A DNA stretch of 32,442 nucleotides from a virus (taxonomy: Duplodnaviria > Caudoviricetes), in IMG/VR virus record IMGVR_UViG_3300030330_001942, positions 1-32,442 of that record. One strand, 5' to 3'. The position numbers were made by a program, and so were the translations under genes. Below the pieces are notes generated by a model, which worked only from the letters and a program-made list of their open reading frames with translations, was not told where the DNA came from and ran no database searches. The first letter of the stretch is position 1. Every line of letters begins with the position of its first letter. Positions 6,524 to 26,532 of this stretch are shown here, in pieces.

Positions 6524-6794
6524 AGCCTTGTTTTGTATCAGTTTTTAAAATTCCTTTTTCAGCTAACTTCATATTTTCTGTTTCTGTTTGTATTCTGTTA
6601 AGTATTTCAAATGCATCAAACACTGCTAATTTTTTTGTTGCAGCTGCATTTTTTAATCTGTCCGCAGATAAATCATCTTCTGGGTCATGTTTGATGATTT
6701 TTTCTCCTGCAACTTTTATCAATTCATTCACAGCTTTTTCTCCTGCTGCAATAATTCTTAATTTAATTTGTTTTGAATTTAATTTTTTTTCCAT
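6501..6794 (-). CDS. Putative terminase small subunit
   Basis: 97 aa helical protein overlapping the terL start (RLKNAAATKKLAVFDAFEIL). The call rests mainly on position. Confidence 0.55.
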   Translation of the reverse strand: MEKKLNSKQIKLRIIAAGEKAVNELIKVAGEKIIKHDPEDDLSADRLKNAAATKKLAVFDAFEILNRIQTETENMKLAEKGILKTDTKQGFAERNSK

Positions 6795-7351
6795 ACGCCT
6801 GTAATACTTTGTGACATAATTCTATAAAGTTTTTCATCATCTACAATAAACTCATATTCAGTATCTGGTTTGAAACAAACTCTATCTCCATTCTCTACAC
6901 CTAAATCATTCAACTCTTTGTTGGCATATTTCATTATACCTATCAAAGGTTCGTGTTTTGTATTTTTATAAATAATAGATTCCTCTGTATCTATAGGTTT
7001 TACAAAACAATATTTACTGTGCGGTTTCCATTTACCGTTTTGTTTGTATAAGAAAAACTGGTCTTCATCAACAAAAAAAGTATTGTCTTTCAAAAAACTT
7101 CTACCACTTCGTTGGCGACCTTTCATGTCATAATAAAATTTAAAAACATTATGATGAACTAATAAAGTATCGCCTATTTTAATTTCTCCTGAATATCCTT
7201 TTGGCACATTAACTACTATACCTTCACGATTTGAAAACCTATGGTCTTCTTGAGAAGTACTAGTAATAATCTCAATGTCCTCGATATTTTTTGTATTATT
7301 ATATCTTCGATTATCTTTTGGAGTTATAATAAAATCAAATAAGGATTGCAT
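6779..7351 (-). CDS. GroES-like co-chaperonin with two tandem GroES-fold units
   Basis: The GroES-like pattern appears twice: FIITP...GIVVNVP...IKIGDTLLV and CFVKPI...GIMKY...VENGDRVCFKPDTEYEFIVDDEKLYRI. Confidence 0.6.
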   Translation of the reverse strand: MQSLFDFIITPKDNRRYNNTKNIEDIEIITSTSQEDHRFSNREGIVVNVPKGYSGEIKIGDTLLVHHNVFKFYYDMKGRQRSGRSFLKDNTFFVDEDQFFLYKQNGKWKPHSKYCFVKPIDTEESIIYKNTKHEPLIGIMKYANKELNDLGVENGDRVCFKPDTEYEFIVDDEKLYRIMSQSITGVWKKN

Positions 7352-19202: not shown

Positions 19203-19634
19203 ATGCAATTTGATTATTTAAAATACTGGAGAGTTGTCCGTTATTGGATAAAATCACAGTATGGTCTTACCACTGGAGAACTAGATATGTTATTGTTTCT
19301 CTACACCGAAGATTACTTTAGTAAAGATAAGTTTCAAGAGTTTGACGAACTATTAAGTTGGAATGTAAATAGATTCGATAAGTTGTTGAAAGAGAAGTGG
19401 ATAGTAGTATTTAGAAAACGTTCTGGTAAACAAAAAGCGTTGTATGAATTATCTTACAAAGCAAAGCGTGTAATAAACAGTATATACAAAAAACTAAACG
19501 GAGAAGAAATACCTAGTTCTAAAACTAATCCTATGTTTTTACGTAAGGTTTCCTACACAGATAAAGTGTATAGAAACTTTATAAAAGAAATGAATAAGTC
19601 TATACGACAACAACAACGTCTCTCTCAGAAATAA
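19203..19634 (+). CDS. Winged helix-turn-helix (MarR-like) DNA-binding protein
   Basis: YGLTTGELDMLLFLY...FDKLLKEKWIVVFR...LYELSYKAKRVI. It is the only credible plus-strand gene in the left arm. Confidence 0.6.
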   Translation: MQFDYLKYWRVVRYWIKSQYGLTTGELDMLLFLYTEDYFSKDKFQEFDELLSWNVNRFDKLLKEKWIVVFRKRSGKQKALYELSYKAKRVINSIYKKLNGEEIPSSKTNPMFLRKVSYTDKVYRNFIKEMNKSIRQQQRLSQK

Positions 19635-19866
19635 TAGTACAAGGCTTGTTGTCTATTAGCATAGTGTAACCGCTACGACTATCATAATATATAATATCAT
19701 TAGCTTTTAAGTTTTGCACTTCTGTCCCTGGCTTGATTACTTTGGCTTTTCTATACCTAAGAGCGTCCTTGTCTTTGTCTGATAATAACAATCCTGAGTC
19801 TGTAGTTATTTCTTCATCGATTATATCTACTGCGATATACTTATTGAGTGGCTGCATTTGCTTCAT
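19600..19866 (-). CDS. groES: Co-chaperonin GroES
   Basis: MQPLNKYIAV...TTDSGLLL...AKVIKPGT...IISERDVVVVV, overlapping the end of groEL. Confidence 0.85.
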   Translation of the reverse strand: MKQMQPLNKYIAVDIIDEEITTDSGLLLSDKDKDALRYRKAKVIKPGTEVQNLKANDIIYYDSRSGYTMLIDNKPCTIISERDVVVVV

Positions 19867-21469
19867 ATGTTCTTGCCATTGTTATAATAGCGTTAGTACT
19901 AAGTATGGTTGTTGCAACTGACACTGCATTCATCAATGCGTGCTTGGTAACTTTCAATGGGTCAATGACTCCTAGTTCAAGCAAGTCTCCATACATTTCA
20001 TTTTTAACATCATACCCGTGGCGTGGGTGTATTATACCTTCATAGATTTCATCTGCATTCAATCCAGCATTCTCAAGTATCTGCTCAAGTGGAGCCTTCA
20101 AGGCTCTACCTAAAATTGCGTAAGCAATTTTTCGAGAATTTTTTTTGCAGGTATCTGAAAGCTTTTCATATTCTTTGGCTATACTATATAGAACCGTTCC
20201 ACCACCAGGTAGTATACCTTCTGTCAAAGCAGAGCGTACAGCACATACCGCATCATCTACTCTGTCATATAATTCTTTTTGTTCCAAGTCAGTTTGACCA
20301 CCGACATGTATCACACCAATCCCCCCAGTCAAAGATGCTATTCGAGATAAGATAAAATCTTTATCTGCTTTTTTTGTCGCCAACTTATGACTGTCCCACA
20401 GTTGTTTTACTCTTTCCTCTACTACAGCATCCGTAACTTCGGGGTCTTTGATAATGACTGTAGAGTCTCTCCCAACTATCACCTTGGAAGCATGACCTAA
20501 GTCATTAAAAGTAATCAGGCTTAAATCATCACCAGTTTTTTCTGAAAAATATTTTGCGTTCACTGACACAGCAATATCTTGCATAAGCTCTTGTTGTTTG
20601 TAACCAAATTGTGGTGGAGAGATTTGACATACATTTAATTTTTTCTTTACAACGTTTGCTGCCAAAGTATTCAATACATTCTCACTTACATTACAAATCA
20701 ATAGTAATCTTTTGTTTTGTTGAATGATTGGTTTCAGTATGCCTTCAATATTTAAAATGTTTTCAACTGTATTATCACACACAAGTATGTGTACGTCTTC
20801 CATAATACACTCGTCTTTCTTTTGGTCGTTGATAAACAAAGGAGAGTTCATTCCTTTCTCAACCTTTATGCCTGTAGTAACTTCACTATAAGTATCACTT
20901 GTCTGAGAACGCTCAACCGTAACGATTCCATTCTTACCAACTTGATTGTACGTGTCTGATATAATAGTTCCTATATCTTTATCTCCGTTTGCAGATATAA
21001 CAGCAACGTCTTTCAATCTACGCTTTGTAATTTTTTGTGAATGCTTTTTCAGTTCTTTCACAATGTTGTCAAGCTCTGTGTTTATTGCACGTAGTATTTC
21101 TGTTCGATTAACATTCTGTTTCATTAACTCATCACCAGCTTTTACTAATGCCTCTGTCAAAACAATCGCAGTTGTAGTTCCATCTCCAGCTGAGGTTGCA
21201 GTATTGTTTGCTGCTTGCTTCATCATAGTGACTGCTAAATTTTCTACGGGGTGTAGTAAGTTTACAGAACGAGCAACAGTAACTCCATCTTTGGTAACTG
21301 TCATGCCTTGTGATTGGCTTGGAGATTCTATCAACACAGTATGACCTCTTGGGCCTAGTGTAGATTTTACAGCGTTAGCGATTTGTGTGATTCCTTTGAT
21401 TAGTGATGTTCTGCCTGAGTCTCCAAATCTCAGGTCTTTAGGCGTGTAGCCTCCTGCTTGTGGGTTCAT
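19841..21469 (-). CDS. groEL: Chaperonin GroEL
   Basis: TLGPRG, VTKDGVTVA, AGDGTTTA, ISANGD, EGILPGGG and GVIDPLKV motifs in 542 aa. Confidence 0.96.
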   Translation of the reverse strand: MNPQAGGYTPKDLRFGDSGRTSLIKGITQIANAVKSTLGPRGHTVLIESPSQSQGMTVTKDGVTVARSVNLLHPVENLAVTMMKQAANNTATSAGDGTTTAIVLTEALVKAGDELMKQNVNRTEILRAINTELDNIVKELKKHSQKITKRRLKDVAVISANGDKDIGTIISDTYNQVGKNGIVTVERSQTSDTYSEVTTGIKVEKGMNSPLFINDQKKDECIMEDVHILVCDNTVENILNIEGILKPIIQQNKRLLLICNVSENVLNTLAANVVKKKLNVCQISPPQFGYKQQELMQDIAVSVNAKYFSEKTGDDLSLITFNDLGHASKVIVGRDSTVIIKDPEVTDAVVEERVKQLWDSHKLATKKADKDFILSRIASLTGGIGVIHVGGQTDLEQKELYDRVDDAVCAVRSALTEGILPGGGTVLYSIAKEYEKLSDTCKKNSRKIAYAILGRALKAPLEQILENAGLNADEIYEGIIHPRHGYDVKNEMYGDLLELGVIDPLKVTKHALMNAVSVATTILSTNAIITMARTYEANAATQ

Positions 21470-23281: not shown

Positions 23282-23305
23282 ATTACTAATTAAAACACAC
23301 ACACA

Positions 23306-24412
23306 ATGAAAAATTTAATCGGAAAAAAGTATAATAACCTAAGCAATTTAGCCCTCAACAGAAATGGGAGCGAACGTTCCAGGACAGTTGTACAGAGTTA
23401 TCAGTGTAGCCCTAACCCTGAAAACTACGCCTTTACACCTTTTGAAATTGATTTAAGAGGTATGAATGCGAGACAGAGAGCGGGCAACATAACTAGAACA
23501 GCAGAGAGCGGCCAATATGTTTACCACTCTAATTTTACTATCGGTATGGAAGTTGAAAAATCGAGAATATCTAGAGAGGTACTAAGCGGCAGCCAGTTGC
23601 AACATTTTTGCCAGTTAATGAAAGGTATTGAGCGAGACGGCAGCTGCGGTCTTGAAGCAATTACAAATGTATTGCCGCTCCTTCCTCAAAGCTTATGGCG
23701 AAACAAAATGTTTAATTTGATGTATGAAGCGGAGACCTTAATTGATGAAGCTTACAGCCAGTCTGATGAGATGAATTCTAGAGGGTCTTATCTATGCGGT
23801 GGCCATATTACTATCGCTAGCCGAAACCACTCAGCAAGCGAGTTAAACAGACTTATGAGACCTTATTACGCTATCTTATATGCACTTAACCGCAAGCGAC
23901 TAGCTAACCAGTATTGCTGCGAGAATATCACAGCGAGAACGAATGATGAGAGCAGAGATGATAGAATTGGAGCGGGACACACGAAATACCAGCCAATTTT
24001 TGAAAAGCCAGGCGGCAAATTACTGGAGTTTCGCTTATGGAGTAGATTTACCAGTGTTAAGCAAATGATTAACAGATACAAGTTAATGCATTTACTGGTT
24101 GATTTTGCGGTCAACGATAGAGGGACTTATGCTAAGTTTATCAAAAAAGCTAGACCAATTTTACTAGCAATGTATAACAATAATGCAGCGAAAGTTGATG
24201 ACTTAATCCAGTTGTCAAGAGCGTTTGTCAAGATGTTATGCACTAACAAGATAAACGAAAAGGTTGCTAGTTTCATTTATGTTAGACACTTGCACAGAGA
24301 ATATCTAGACAGATTATCTTCGGGGGACAGAACTTATTTGAAAAAGATTACGACCCGCACAGCTTATAGACAGCTAATAAATGGTCAGATAAGATTCGCT
24401 AGCAGAAGATGA
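23306..24412 (+). CDS. Putative amidoligase (COOH-NH2 ligase, glutamine synthetase-like fold)
   Basis: FTIGMEVE (ExE), ERDGS, LEA, CGGHIT, KY and LEFR motifs occur in the expected order. Confidence 0.75.
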   Translation: MKNLIGKKYNNLSNLALNRNGSERSRTVVQSYQCSPNPENYAFTPFEIDLRGMNARQRAGNITRTAESGQYVYHSNFTIGMEVEKSRISREVLSGSQLQHFCQLMKGIERDGSCGLEAITNVLPLLPQSLWRNKMFNLMYEAETLIDEAYSQSDEMNSRGSYLCGGHITIASRNHSASELNRLMRPYYAILYALNRKRLANQYCCENITARTNDESRDDRIGAGHTKYQPIFEKPGGKLLEFRLWSRFTSVKQMINRYKLMHLLVDFAVNDRGTYAKFIKKARPILLAMYNNNAAKVDDLIQLSRAFVKMLCTNKINEKVASFIYVRHLHREYLDRLSSGDRTYLKKITTRTAYRQLINGQIRFASRR

Positions 24413-24444
24413 TTCGCACAGCTGGGCATCTGTATAAACTGCTC

Positions 24445-24493
24445 CTGTTTACCAGTGTGTACTGGTACTGATGAAGCCAAAAGGCAGAAACAG
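24445..24493 (+). ncRNA. Type III hammerhead ribozyme (variant)
   Basis: CUGU-U / stem I UACCAGU-GUGU-ACUGGUA / CUGAUGA / A-GCC-AAAA-GGC-A / GAA-ACAG. Predicted cleavage after U24449 (GUU triplet). The base of stem II is an A.A mismatch. Confidence 0.78.
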
Positions 24494-24517
24494 ATTTAAT
24501 AATTTAAAACAAATATT

Positions 24518-25195
24518 ATGAACACACACACACGTTATATGAACGCAAAAGTTAAGCTCACAAAAGCTCAACGCACTAACCTAAAATATGTCTTAGAGTC
24601 ATATTTCTTTCAACAAGTAACACCACACAAATTAGAACATTACAGATGTAAATTTGTCAAGACTTTATCAGACAGCCAAAGGAGTAGCAGCGAGTATTTT
24701 GCAAGGTGGGAAGCCAAAGGACTTTCGTTTCCAATAGCTTGCAATACCTGGGGGAGCCAAACTTTTAGATTAAACGCCAGGCAATTTAAACCTTTGCAAG
24801 ATTTATTTCAAATCACTCAGCATGTTAGTTTAAAAACCAGCAATCAAAGATGGCTGGAGTTGAACTGGAGCAGAGTACATTTAGTTGAAGATGTTTTGCC
24901 GCTAATTGTTGCAGCACAAACAAAAGCAAACACGCTAATGCACAAGAGACAACAATCGGACAAGAGAGACCACGATTTTGTGGTGCGAATGATTAGAAAG
25001 TATAATATAATTAGATTCGATTCAGCAATTAGGTGGGTATGTGCGAGAGATTTAAGAGACTATCACTACCGATTCGGGAGCAAGATATTTAATCGAGGCG
25101 AACTGGAAATGCTTTACAAATGTAGCGACAGAATAAGAGTTGAAAAGGCAACAATAGTAATGGCCGAACAGCTTGGAAATTACGAGTTAAGCTAA
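24518..25195 (+). CDS. Hypothetical early protein
   Basis: 225 aa basic ORF with an A-rich leader. No family recognised. Confidence 0.7.
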   Translation: MNTHTRYMNAKVKLTKAQRTNLKYVLESYFFQQVTPHKLEHYRCKFVKTLSDSQRSSSEYFARWEAKGLSFPIACNTWGSQTFRLNARQFKPLQDLFQITQHVSLKTSNQRWLELNWSRVHLVEDVLPLIVAAQTKANTLMHKRQQSDKRDHDFVVRMIRKYNIIRFDSAIRWVCARDLRDYHYRFGSKIFNRGELEMLYKCSDRIRVEKATIVMAEQLGNYELS

Positions 25196-25213
25196 TTAGT
25201 CGTACACGACCAA
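25194..25213. promoter_or_regulatory. Palindromic site AATTAGTCG-TACA-CGACCAA
   Basis: Copy of the 22367 motif at the stop codon of 24518..25195. Confidence 0.6.
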
Positions 25214-25217
25214 AAGA

Positions 25218-25245
25218 GAGGCCGCTTTATGCGGTCTTTTTTTTT
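25218..25245 (+). terminator. Intrinsic terminator
   Basis: GAGGCCGC-TTTAT-GCGGTCTT hairpin followed by a T run. Confidence 0.85.
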
Positions 25246-25254
25246 GGCCGAACC

Positions 25255-25285
25255 GCTCACCCTGCGAACCCTGCTCACCCTGCAA
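25255..25285. repeat. 9-bp-period tandem repeat (ACCCTGCnn x3)
   Basis: gctc accctgcga accctgctc accctgcaa. Confidence 0.75.
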
Positions 25286-25321
25286 ATGAAGTATGCGAAA
25301 TAAAAATTCGTATAAAATAAA

Positions 25322-25353
25322 TTTGGTAATGTCTAAATGTTTTCGTATCTTTG
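25322..25353 (+). promoter_or_regulatory. Bacteroidota housekeeping-sigma promoter
   Basis: TTTG (25322) - 20 bp - TATCTTTG (25346). Confidence 0.8.
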
Positions 25354-25416
25354 TCTAAATTAATCAGAGGTCAGAGGACAAATACAAGAAGTCCAAACCT
25401 CACAAACAAATAAACT

Positions 25417-25770
25417 ATGTGTATAATTATTGTAAAGTCGAAAGACAAAAGAGTATCGCCAGAGATACTTAAAAATTCATCACGCATAAACCCACACGGG
25501 CTAGGCGTAATTTTTCTGGATACCAATGAAGTCAAATACTATCAATCGAAAGAATGGAAAGTGCTTGACAACGACAGACCATATATCGCTCATTTCAGAT
25601 ATGCAACCAAAGGTAAAATCAACAGAGCCAACACACACCCATTTGTATGCGGCAGCAATACTAATGAATTGCTAATGCACAATGGAACTATTGCTGGATA
25701 TGGAACTACCGATATGTGCGACAGCAAGCAGCTTGCTAATCAGCTTGGTGCTATTGCTAGGCCGCAATGA
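25417..25770 (+). CDS. Class II (Ntn) glutamine amidotransferase, N-terminal part, ending at an in-frame TGA
   Basis: N-terminal MCIII (Cys2), NPHGLG, HFRYAT.G, NTHPF, MHNG and DS motifs. Confidence 0.85.
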   Translation: MCIIIVKSKDKRVSPEILKNSSRINPHGLGVIFLDTNEVKYYQSKEWKVLDNDRPYIAHFRYATKGKINRANTHPFVCGSNTNELLMHNGTIAGYGTTDMCDSKQLANQLGAIARPQ

Positions 25771-25776
25771 AGTGCA

Positions 25777-26532
25777 GTGCTAGGTCAACACGATTCTAGA
25801 TTCTTAACTTACAACAAGCGTAACAGACAATACGAAATCTACAACAAACAATTGTGGACTAAACACAAAGGCGTTTGGTTTTCCAAACCTAATGTGCTGC
25901 AAGAGAATGTCGTAGCAGTTTATGGTACGCTCAAAAAAGGTGGAGGCAATCACAGATATTTGTATGGACAAAGATTTGTGGGCAAAGGTACAACAAGAGA
26001 TAAATACCCATTAGTAATTAATGGGTTACCTTACTTGTTGGACAATCCATTAGCAGCAGATTCACACCACGTTGAAGTCGAAGTATACAAAGTATCTCAA
26101 CAAGCTTTTGATGATATTGATATGCTAGAGGGACACCCAACTTTTTACAAGCGTAGGCGTTTACCTATCAAGCTTAACAGCGGTACGATAATCAGTGCTT
26201 GGGTTTATTTTATAAACAGAGACACAACTTATGACCAGTTAAAGAAAATGAAATCACACAAAAGTTTTCCGATACAGAAGTCAGTGTTTAGAATGCCAAA
26301 ATATTCTAAACCAAATTATCAGAGGTACACGTACGAGCCGAACACTAGGTATCATCAACAGCAATCATTGTTCTCATCACTATCGTTAATACACGATAAG
26401 GAAGATGATAACACAAAGTATTGTCAGATATGCTTGGAAGAAGTTACGTTTGACCCAACTGAAATCAGCAACAAAAATTATCATTGCAGTGTGTGTAATG
26501 AAATGTATTCAGAGCAAGAGGTTACTAGCTAA
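25777..26532 (+). CDS. In-frame continuation: GATase end, gamma-glutamylcyclotransferase (AIG2-like) domain and C-terminal Zn ribbon
   Basis: W...GVWFS, then VAVYGTLKKG, VEVEVY, IDMLEGHP..YKR and AWVYF. CQIC...CSVC at the end. Same frame as 25417. Confidence 0.8.
   Translation: MLGQHDSRFLTYNKRNRQYEIYNKQLWTKHKGVWFSKPNVLQENVVAVYGTLKKGGGNHRYLYGQRFVGKGTTRDKYPLVINGLPYLLDNPLAADSHHVEVEVYKVSQQAFDDIDMLEGHPTFYKRRRLPIKLNSGTIISAWVYFINRDTTYDQLKKMKSHKSFPIQKSVFRMPKYSKPNYQRYTYEPNTRYHQQQSLFSSLSLIHDKEDDNTKYCQICLEEVTFDPTEISNKNYHCSVCNEMYSEQEVTS

Follow-up and report, generated by a model that had tools for sequence, protein, structure and literature searches.

Introduction

The early polycistronic mRNA of bacteriophage T7 is processed at RNase III sites, leaving a folded 3' end. 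Hammerhead ribozymes have been known between phage genes since 2011; clustered prophage hammerheads have been proposed to process long transcripts into single-gene mRNAs (PMC3088659). In this study, we focus on a 32,442-nucleotide (nt) stretch of DNA (IMG/VR record IMGVR_UViG_3300030330_001942, positions 1 to 32,442; hereafter the window, meaning this whole stretch), in which a putative type III hammerhead is joined to a compact H-type pseudoknot (hereafter the knot) within the 105-nt gap separating two plus-strand open reading frames (ORFs). Both folds are present and covary in large families, and the spacings match those of the family. Judged from the sequence, it is probable (roughly 0.6) that the locus would yield a self-processing polycistronic mRNA whose upstream message is left with a knot as its cap. 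Here the hammerhead appears as a component of a fixed cassette, whose spacings match the limits of the terminating and the initiating ribosome and in which a hairpin, or else a very common knot unlisted in the RNA catalogues searched, stands upstream of it.

The Pseudoknot and the Hammerhead in the Window

The elements of the fusion and of its flanks are listed below, and are read from the sequence unless further support is named.

24413–24417, + strand: spacer between the stop codon and the knot, 5 nt (the family mode)
24418–24444, + strand: H-type pseudoknot (sequence, descriptor and family alignment A2)
24418–24421 with 24430–24433, + strand: pseudoknot stem 1 (S1), ACAG with CUGU
24422–24423, + strand: pseudoknot loop 1 (L1), CU
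24424–24428 with 24440–24444, + strand: pseudoknot stem 2 (S2), GGGCA with UGCUC, one G.U
24429, + strand: pseudoknot loop 2 (L2), U
24434–24439, + strand: pseudoknot loop 3 (L3), AUAAAC
24445–24493, + strand: type III hammerhead (sequence, RF00008 alignment, family covariation and compensatory changes in the clade)
24445–24448 with 24490–24493, + strand: hammerhead stem III, 4 base pairs (bp), CUGU with ACAG
24449, + strand: U17 of the cleavage triplet GUU; predicted cut 3' of U24449
24450–24456 with 24461–24467, + strand: hammerhead stem I, 7 bp, UACCAGU with ACUGGUA, loop GUGU
24468–24474 and 24487–24490, + strand: hammerhead core, CUGAUGA and GAAA
24475–24486, + strand: hammerhead stem II, 3 bp, GCC (24476–24478) with GGC (24483–24485), loop AAAA
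24475 with 24486, + strand: A.A at 10.1/11.1, flanking stem II
24494–24517, + strand: A/U-rich leader from the hammerhead to the start codon, 24 nt (at the family distance peak)

Both folds had been described in the original prediction, made from the letters alone, and all of its elements (core, stems I to III, loops and A.A of the hammerhead, stems and loops of the knot) are found at these positions, base for base. The conserved hammerhead core C3-U4-G5-A6-N7-G8-A9 with G12-A13-A14 is present as CUGAUGA (24468–24474) and GAA (24487–24489), the A15.1-U16.1 pair is present (A24490-U24448), and nucleotide 17 is not G (U24449). Three helices surround the core, of which stems I and II are closed by loops, and all are supported by covariation in the family. 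A loose type III descriptor gives a single match in the window, and at least one match in 10 of 300 shuffles. At gathering thresholds Rfam returns no match anywhere in the window. RF00008 (Hammerhead_3), searched against 151 nt, aligns over its full length to 24442–24496 with 19.9 bits (E = 0.041). With this score, below the RF00008 threshold, it is a hammerhead by core and architecture and no Rfam-threshold member; nor is its pair at 10.1/11.1 a Watson-Crick pair. In that sense, the assignment of 24445–24493 to the known phage intergenic kind is supported, and self-cleavage is predicted. Folding energy is unremarkable both for the hammerhead (24445–24493, z = -1.83) and for 24413–24500 (z = -0.39).

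The knot descriptor likewise has its sole match in the window at 24418–24444, with 0.05 matches expected per shuffled window. The window knot fits the family alignment A2, which comprises 131 knot copies including the window and its relatives, without gaps, as S1(4)-CU-S2(5)-N-S1'(4)-NNAAAC-S2'(5), a geometry of 4-2-5-1-4-6-5 nt. It is atypical in the closing pair of S1, which is G-C, not C-G, as in 7 of the 131 aligned copies, and its S2 reads GGGCA/UGCUC against the consensus GAGYA/URCUC, S2 being partly fixed by the search pattern. The knot is followed by CUGUUUACC, and the stretch 24413–24517 was rejected as an intrinsic terminator, having no site with a GC-rich hairpin and a U-run on the + strand. 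The knot was likewise rejected as a preQ1-I or other pseudoknot riboswitch, as no curated Rfam model of that kind matches at E up to 10, either in 24380–24530 or in a canonical copy.

The Hammerhead Family

A search of the viral collection (IMG/VR) with a pattern consisting of the core, the AAAA loop and GAAACAG gave at least 122 viral stretches (about 230 estimated), with 113 distinct sequences. Alignment A1 holds 96 hammerheads, namely the window and 95 distinct sequences with full flanks, one of which (L111) is a chance match without the fold. Stems I and II constitute independent evidence, since the search pattern was fixed solely at the core, at loop II and along the 3' strand of stem III. 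In A1, 94.4% of cells are paired as compared with 67.6% in shuffles, and the covariation score is 0.741 as compared with 0.195, neither value being reached in any of 500 shuffles. Changes on both sides occur at 11 of 16 pairs, and pairing falls to 34–46% when the partners are slid by 1–3 columns. In stem I pairing reaches 98.5%, and most of its positions show each of the four Watson-Crick types.

The pair at 10.1/11.1 is G-C in 40 of the 96 sequences, U.U in 47, A.A in 7, which come from several contigs, and A-U or G-U in 2. In the portions of PMC3088659 that treat this position, U.U is described as occurring in nature, as supporting activity and, according to earlier work, as the best tolerated mismatch; A.A is not mentioned in its sections on the mismatch and on phage hammerheads. 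Base 17 was observed to track this pair (A1 columns 10, 36 and 47; window positions 24449, 24475 and 24486), with C17 accompanying G-C in 31 sequences, A17 accompanying U.U in 39 and U17 accompanying A.A in 6. It is complementary to base 10.1 in 76/96, which holds also between copies on one contig, and the pattern could reflect either module lineages or a contact.

Relatives of the G-C type score 30.3–47.6 bits with RF00008 (E down to 7e-8; 16 matches in 14 of 20 loci), and none of the relatives in the 20 loci searched attains the gathering threshold. Routine annotation therefore misses this hammerhead family, and standard Rfam annotation missed every member of it that was tested.

The closest relatives of the locus were collected through the 368-amino-acid (aa) protein encoded directly upstream, which has relatives on eight viral contigs at 64–100% identity. 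Knot and hammerhead are kept together in five of the eight loci, L001 (identical to the window), L002, L003, L006 and L007, and the last four also retain the N-terminus of the downstream ORF and the gene order. In stem I, six of the seven pairs differ among the members of this clade without loss of pairing, four of them by change on both sides, and two of the three inner pairs of stem II have changed on both sides (GCC/GGC versus UCG/CGA). Pair 2 of S2 is G.U, A-U or G-C. At 10.1/11.1, the window shares its A.A with L002 and L003, and L006 and L007 carry U.U. Both elements are thus retained in five of eight related loci with compensatory changes, which, together with the shuffle counts for the two descriptors, makes chance an improbable origin. 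The claim of a hammerhead is strengthened by a complete core and by conformity with a 96-sequence family in which three helices covary. The remaining three loci (L004, L005 and L008) carry, immediately past the homologous gene, a small hairpin and then a GC hairpin with nine consecutive T, which means that the same slot holds an intrinsic terminator there. The L004 contig has a knot-hammerhead cassette about 700 nt further upstream instead.

The Knot Family

The pattern used for the knot specified L1, S2 and the last bases of L3, and put no constraint on S1. It was found in 133 viral stretches in 2 of the 64 parts of the collection, from which about 6,400 are estimated overall, and at least three of the four S1 pairs form in 136 of 139 distinct copies. 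In A2, 96.4% of cells are paired versus 78.5% in shuffles (0/500 as high). The inner S1 pairs take all four Watson-Crick types, which bears out the H-type pseudoknot of the original prediction; the pairs are conserved in the family and those of S1 covary. In S2, U.G outnumbers C.A by 31 to 5, which points to an RNA read from this strand.

Rfam has no family for the knot: neither the 20 loci searched nor a 56-nt query at E up to 10 gave a match, and the knot is absent from Rfam 15. Searches by word and by sequence word found no paper on the knot or on a hairpin-hammerhead cassette, leaving aside the supplements of PMC3088659 including Dataset S1, an alignment that may already include members of this hammerhead family. 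The passages on pseudoknots and phages in PMC5737381 and in bioRxiv 10.64898/2026.09.22.753630 concern matters unrelated to the knot. The same knot pattern gives about 1,600 stretches by estimate in prokaryote genomes, a number near a rough estimate of what chance would give; S1 is fully paired in 43 of 122 such matches, which are spread over many phyla, and hence the count overstates the true copies.

Among 135 copies, the knot begins 5 nt after a stop codon in 22, 6 nt in 13, 7 nt in 9, 8 nt in 10 and 9 nt in 11, so that 65/135 fall at 5–9 nt, and only 4/135 at 0–4 nt. The mode of 5 nt is thus also near-minimal, whereas the distance from the knot to the next start codon is broad. A hammerhead core motif follows within 75 nt in 4 of the 139 knots, of which two look like chance, leaving two genuine fusions; fusion is rare, and the attached hammerhead, without a spacer, is a particular feature of the window knot. 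Another 13 of the 139 lie 4–13 nt upstream of a same-strand tRNA gene (mostly tRNA-Asp, also Arg and Ser) on unrelated contigs (L140, L152, L159, L160, L172, L177, L180, L182, L183, L191, L202, L211 and L218). The 5' end of a tRNA gene is an RNase P site. A role of the knot as part of a tRNA-like ACCA end was considered and rejected, since the first base after it is A in 93/135 and the second C in 59, with no fixed CCA.

In four metagenome loci (L436, L469, L472 and L474), CC replaces CU in L1. The first two S2 pairs are both G-C in two of the three lineages concerned, as base triples would have it, and the third misfits; with these few CC variants being inconsistent, covariation between L1 and the first S2 pairs as base triples was set aside.

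The Cassette and Its Spacing

The layout of the family runs from a stop codon over 5–9 nt to a hairpin or knot, over a further 0–2 nt to the hammerhead, and over a leader of 24–25 nt to a start codon. A hairpin of -8 kcal/mol or lower is present in the 41 nt preceding stem III in 73 of 111 members, as compared with 13 of 111 in a control shifted by 60 nt; 57 of the 73 end 0–2 nt before CUGU, and none has a U-run after it. In a second pass over the 107 members with enough flank, a hairpin was found in 75, a knot of the window type in 11 and neither in 21. A plain GC-rich hairpin takes the place of the knot in most relatives. Where an upstream ORF could be called, the hairpin begins 5–9 nt after its stop codon in 44 of 62 cases, and less than 5 nt after it in 3. 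At the other end, the distance from the hammerhead to the start codon peaks at 24 nt (15 members) and 25 nt (22 members), together 37/107, with 10 members lacking a callable start; the leaders carry GGAG-type or A/U-only initiation regions. With spacings of 5, 0 and 24 nt, the window matches the family and is thus a textbook member of the cassette.

About ten members have no upstream hairpin (L024, L028, L050, L055, L060, L085, L088, L100, L106 and L110) and follow instead a conserved A/T-rich inverted repeat of about 18 nt, situated about 20 nt ahead of stem III. This repeat may be a phage promoter or operator, in which case its hammerheads would trim a 5' leader.

Direct fusions of knot and hammerhead are found repeatedly. 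Of 23 distinct matches in the viral collection, 15 are genuine, the other 8 being matches in coding sequence without a knot; 22 distinct fusions were found over the loci collected from it and from the earlier searches, and 40 distinct ones in the metagenome collection. Among them, S1 takes about a dozen different sequences, and the hammerheads belong to several subtypes. In the 22, stem III follows the knot directly in 14, after 1 nt in 7 and after 8 nt in one. Knots and hairpins are interchangeable in the slot before the hammerhead, while the knot and hammerhead modules occur mostly separately.

A Proposed Self-Processing mRNA and the Alternatives

In the scheme that we favor, the hammerhead would cleave itself 3' of U24449. 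This would give the upstream product a 3' end made up of the knot and a 5-nt tail, CUGUU, carrying a 2',3'-cyclic phosphate, while the downstream product would start with a 5'-OH at U24450, at the base of the 7-bp stem I, and would keep a single-stranded leader of 24 nt, just enough for an initiating ribosome. S2 continues unbroken into stem III, so that the knot could stack on this 4-bp helix and may stabilise it, and the short pairing between the products would favour their release. The 5-nt minimum agrees with the place where mRNA enters the ribosome, counted from the A-site codon, and would keep the knot just outside a terminating ribosome, with the structure staying folded during translation of the upstream cistron; a gap of 5 nt is the family norm even where no hammerhead follows. 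A compact stacked knot with a short tail should be a poor substrate for bacterial 3' exonucleases and poly(A) polymerase, and the knot may thus block 3' exonucleases. In this manner, the stabilities of the two cistrons would be separated without host RNases.

The exchange between hairpin and knot, the knots before tRNA genes and the terminator in the same slot together point to a 3'-end cap beside the cut as a role of the knot. The original prediction had already proposed that cleavage leaves the knot at the 3' end of the upstream message; the anatomy of the family (5–9 nt, 0–2 nt, tRNA genes) is consistent with this proposal, in which the cap role itself is what we infer. A stronger version is offered more tentatively, at somewhat under even odds. 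In it, knot and hammerhead would form a self-contained device that makes and protects a 3' end without host factors. The knot, of triplex type, would stand at the edge of the terminating ribosome and serve as an exonuclease-proof cap, the tail being trimmed to a few bases by the ribozyme or, at a tRNA gene, by RNase P. If this is true, phage hammerheads gain a concrete function, and the knot represents a new class of bacterial mRNA 3'-end element. The testable consequences are exact RNA ends, a knot-dependent stability of the upstream message, and tolerance of A.A at 10.1/11.1.

Several observations weigh against this scheme. The RF00008 score of the window copy lies below the cut-off (gathering threshold 48.5), its helices are short (three pairs in stem II, four in stem III), and the Watson-Crick pair at 10.1/11.1 is replaced by A24475.A24486, at a position where previous mutagenesis had found mismatches less active unless they were U.U, as related in the part of PMC3088659 on this mismatch. 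Nearest-neighbour energies favour an inactive hairpin of ACAG 24418–24421 with CUGU 24445–24448 (-18.7 to -20.0 kcal/mol) over S2 plus the hammerhead calculated without an S1 term (-17.3 kcal/mol), a comparison that ignores the knot. About 120 of the 139 knots have neither a hammerhead nor a tRNA gene downstream, and the knot may therefore have another primary role. Finally, the argument for exonuclease protection is one from position only.

Among the alternatives, the best preserved is that the cassette serves mainly the downstream gene, giving it a uniform 5' end (5'-OH, hammerhead body and a leader of 24–25 nt), with the knot or hairpin only insulating the folding of the ribozyme from the coding sequence upstream. 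The sharp spacing between hammerhead and start codon, with its peak in 37/107, the GGAG-type or A/U-rich initiation regions in the leaders, and the members preceded by a conserved inverted repeat instead of the end of a gene are all in keeping with such a purpose. The upstream structure, however, keeps to 5–9 nt past the stop codon of the upstream gene, and thousands of knots have no ribozyme; a role as insulator only explains neither. As the main function it is unlikely, but a benefit to the downstream gene is compatible with self-processing, and the two do not exclude each other.

It is a rather improbable alternative that the knot is a signal to the ribosome at the stop codon, acting on termination, release, readthrough or re-initiation, with an independent hammerhead merely adjoining it. 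The distance of 5–9 nt, with a sharp drop below 5 nt, is also that of the pseudoknots known to stimulate frameshifting and readthrough, and luteovirus frameshift knots are similarly compact, with an A-rich loop. Yet there is no slippery heptamer before the spacer, where a stop codon stands, and the knot was rejected as a -1 frameshift stimulator on that ground; a ribosome reading through would translate 28 further codons, across the ribozyme. Before hammerheads, plain hairpins fill this slot with equal spacing, tRNA genes too are preceded by knots, and the distances to the next start codon are broad.

Equally improbable is a switch, confined to this clade, in which termination at 24410–24412 tunes cleavage. 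S1 (ACAG/CUGU) and stem III are identical in sequence in the clade and their strands can exchange partners, all four being interchangeable in the window, L002, L003, L006 and L007. In addition, AUCUGU (24428–24433) is the exact reverse complement of ACAGAU (24490–24495), as the original prediction had noted when it suggested that a terminating ribosome melts S1 and couples mRNA processing to translation. Both the minimum free energy fold and the RNAalifold consensus pick the swapped, inactive hairpin, and the competing folds are within about 1–3 kcal/mol by nearest-neighbour estimates. S1 is also unchanged in three lineages among which six of the seven stem I pairs and two of the three stem II pairs differ in at least one sequence, and it has the atypical G-C closing pair already mentioned (7/131). 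In the five clade sequences, RNAalifold does not tell the active fold from the swapped one, as all four strands are invariant there. All four swapped pairs are however found only in the clade of the window (5 of the 22 fusions and 4 of the 40), and the coupled switch thus finds no support as a conserved design of the family; the remaining fusions, with about a dozen S1 sequences, reach 0–3 of the 4 pairs. The six-pair AUCUGU/ACAGAU helix is unique to the window, its relatives having four or five pairs, and locus L413 has a GGGCA..UGCCC knot variant fused to a hammerhead with GGAC/GUCU as its S1. Moreover, a gap of 5 nt, both modal and minimal in the family, would leave the knot outside the terminating ribosome and not melted, and by co-transcriptional order the knot would form first.

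That the hammerhead has decayed into an inactive copy of a mobile module found between genes, as its low Rfam score, the mismatch at 10.1/11.1 (A.A at the most conserved pair of stem II), its minimal stems and the clear shuffling of the modules between unrelated phages and genes might suggest, is highly improbable, given that every invariant core base is intact, that the clade has compensatory changes in stems I and II, and that A.A recurs in 7/96 from several contigs beside U.U in 47/96, a form that supports activity according to the part of PMC3088659 dealing with it.

Genomic Setting and Flanking Genes

The host DNA of the element is a 32.4-kb contig from an uncultured tailed phage with 34.6% G+C, which encodes a portal protein, a large terminase, a holin and an endolysin. 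Small plus-strand genes form a block from about 22.5 kb onward, and the gap with the knot and the hammerhead lies between two of the plus-strand ORFs.

23306–24412, + strand: upstream ORF, 368 aa, named 'amidoligase' in the original prediction (ORF list; stop codon UGA at 24410–24412)
24518–25195, + strand: downstream ORF, 225 aa (ORF list)

Neither the 368-aa nor the 225-aa protein has a match in Pfam, PHROGs, NCBIfam or PDB sequences. In the ESM Atlas, the former is closest to clusters of viral hypothetical proteins in which 12–15% of members carry PF12224 (Amidoligase_2); with so small a share, the name amidoligase is a lead, not a result. Further downstream, a gap of 220 nt without an ORF (25196–25416, + strand) is followed at 25417–26532 (+ strand) by a GATase-like ORF (117 aa, of which about 40 residues match the family) and then by a gamma-glutamyl cyclotransferase ORF. 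A scan of 23600–26517 found no terminator-like site on the + strand, 24413–24517 included, and the 105-nt gap probably lies, therefore, inside an operon. A blastn search of 23300–25200 against named phages gave no match. On the minus strand, the window encodes GroEL and GroES-like proteins, namely GroEL (542 aa) with an adjoining GroES at 19600–21469 and a second GroES-like protein at 6779–7351.

Comparison with Known Systems

With RF00008 and the phage intergenic hammerheads, the window copy shares the catalytic core, a junction open at stem III and a site on the coding strand between phage genes; it differs in its score (19.9 bits, relatives up to 47.6) and in A.A at 10.1/11.1. With the hammerheads of PMC3088659, as far as its sections on them go, the family shares the proposed cutting of long transcripts into gene-length mRNAs and the known U.U mismatch. 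The family differs from them in a fixed AAAA loop II, a loop I of UGWGUR, a hairpin or knot that abuts stem III, and fixed distances to the stop and start codons; these spacings, the abutting structure and the loop features do not occur in the sections and passages of that paper on phages and pseudoknots. What goes beyond the papers searched is the fixed cassette, the A.A variant and the fusion to an abundant, uncatalogued knot.

The RNase III sites of T7 early mRNA have in common with this locus an intercistronic cut, a folded 3' end and separate fates of the cistrons; here, by contrast, the RNA would cut itself without a host enzyme, leaving a 2',3'-cyclic phosphate and a 5'-OH. The MALAT1 and MEN-beta RNAs acquire their 3' ends through a triple helix and RNase P cleavage at a tRNA-like structure, so that a 3' end made by processing and a compact fold upstream of the cut are shared, and 13/139 knots stand before a tRNA gene; those RNAs, however, are eukaryotic nuclear long noncoding RNAs with another fold and no ribozyme, and the resemblance is one of logic only. 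Luteovirus-type -1 frameshift knots likewise have a short L1, an A-rich L3 and a distance of 5–9 nt from the decoding codon, whereas the window knot follows a stop codon, with neither a slippery heptamer nor an extended frame. The RiboJ insulator, lastly, also combines a ribozyme with an adjoining hairpin and standardises the end of a message, but it is engineered, has its hairpin downstream of the ribozyme and acts in the 5' untranslated region only.

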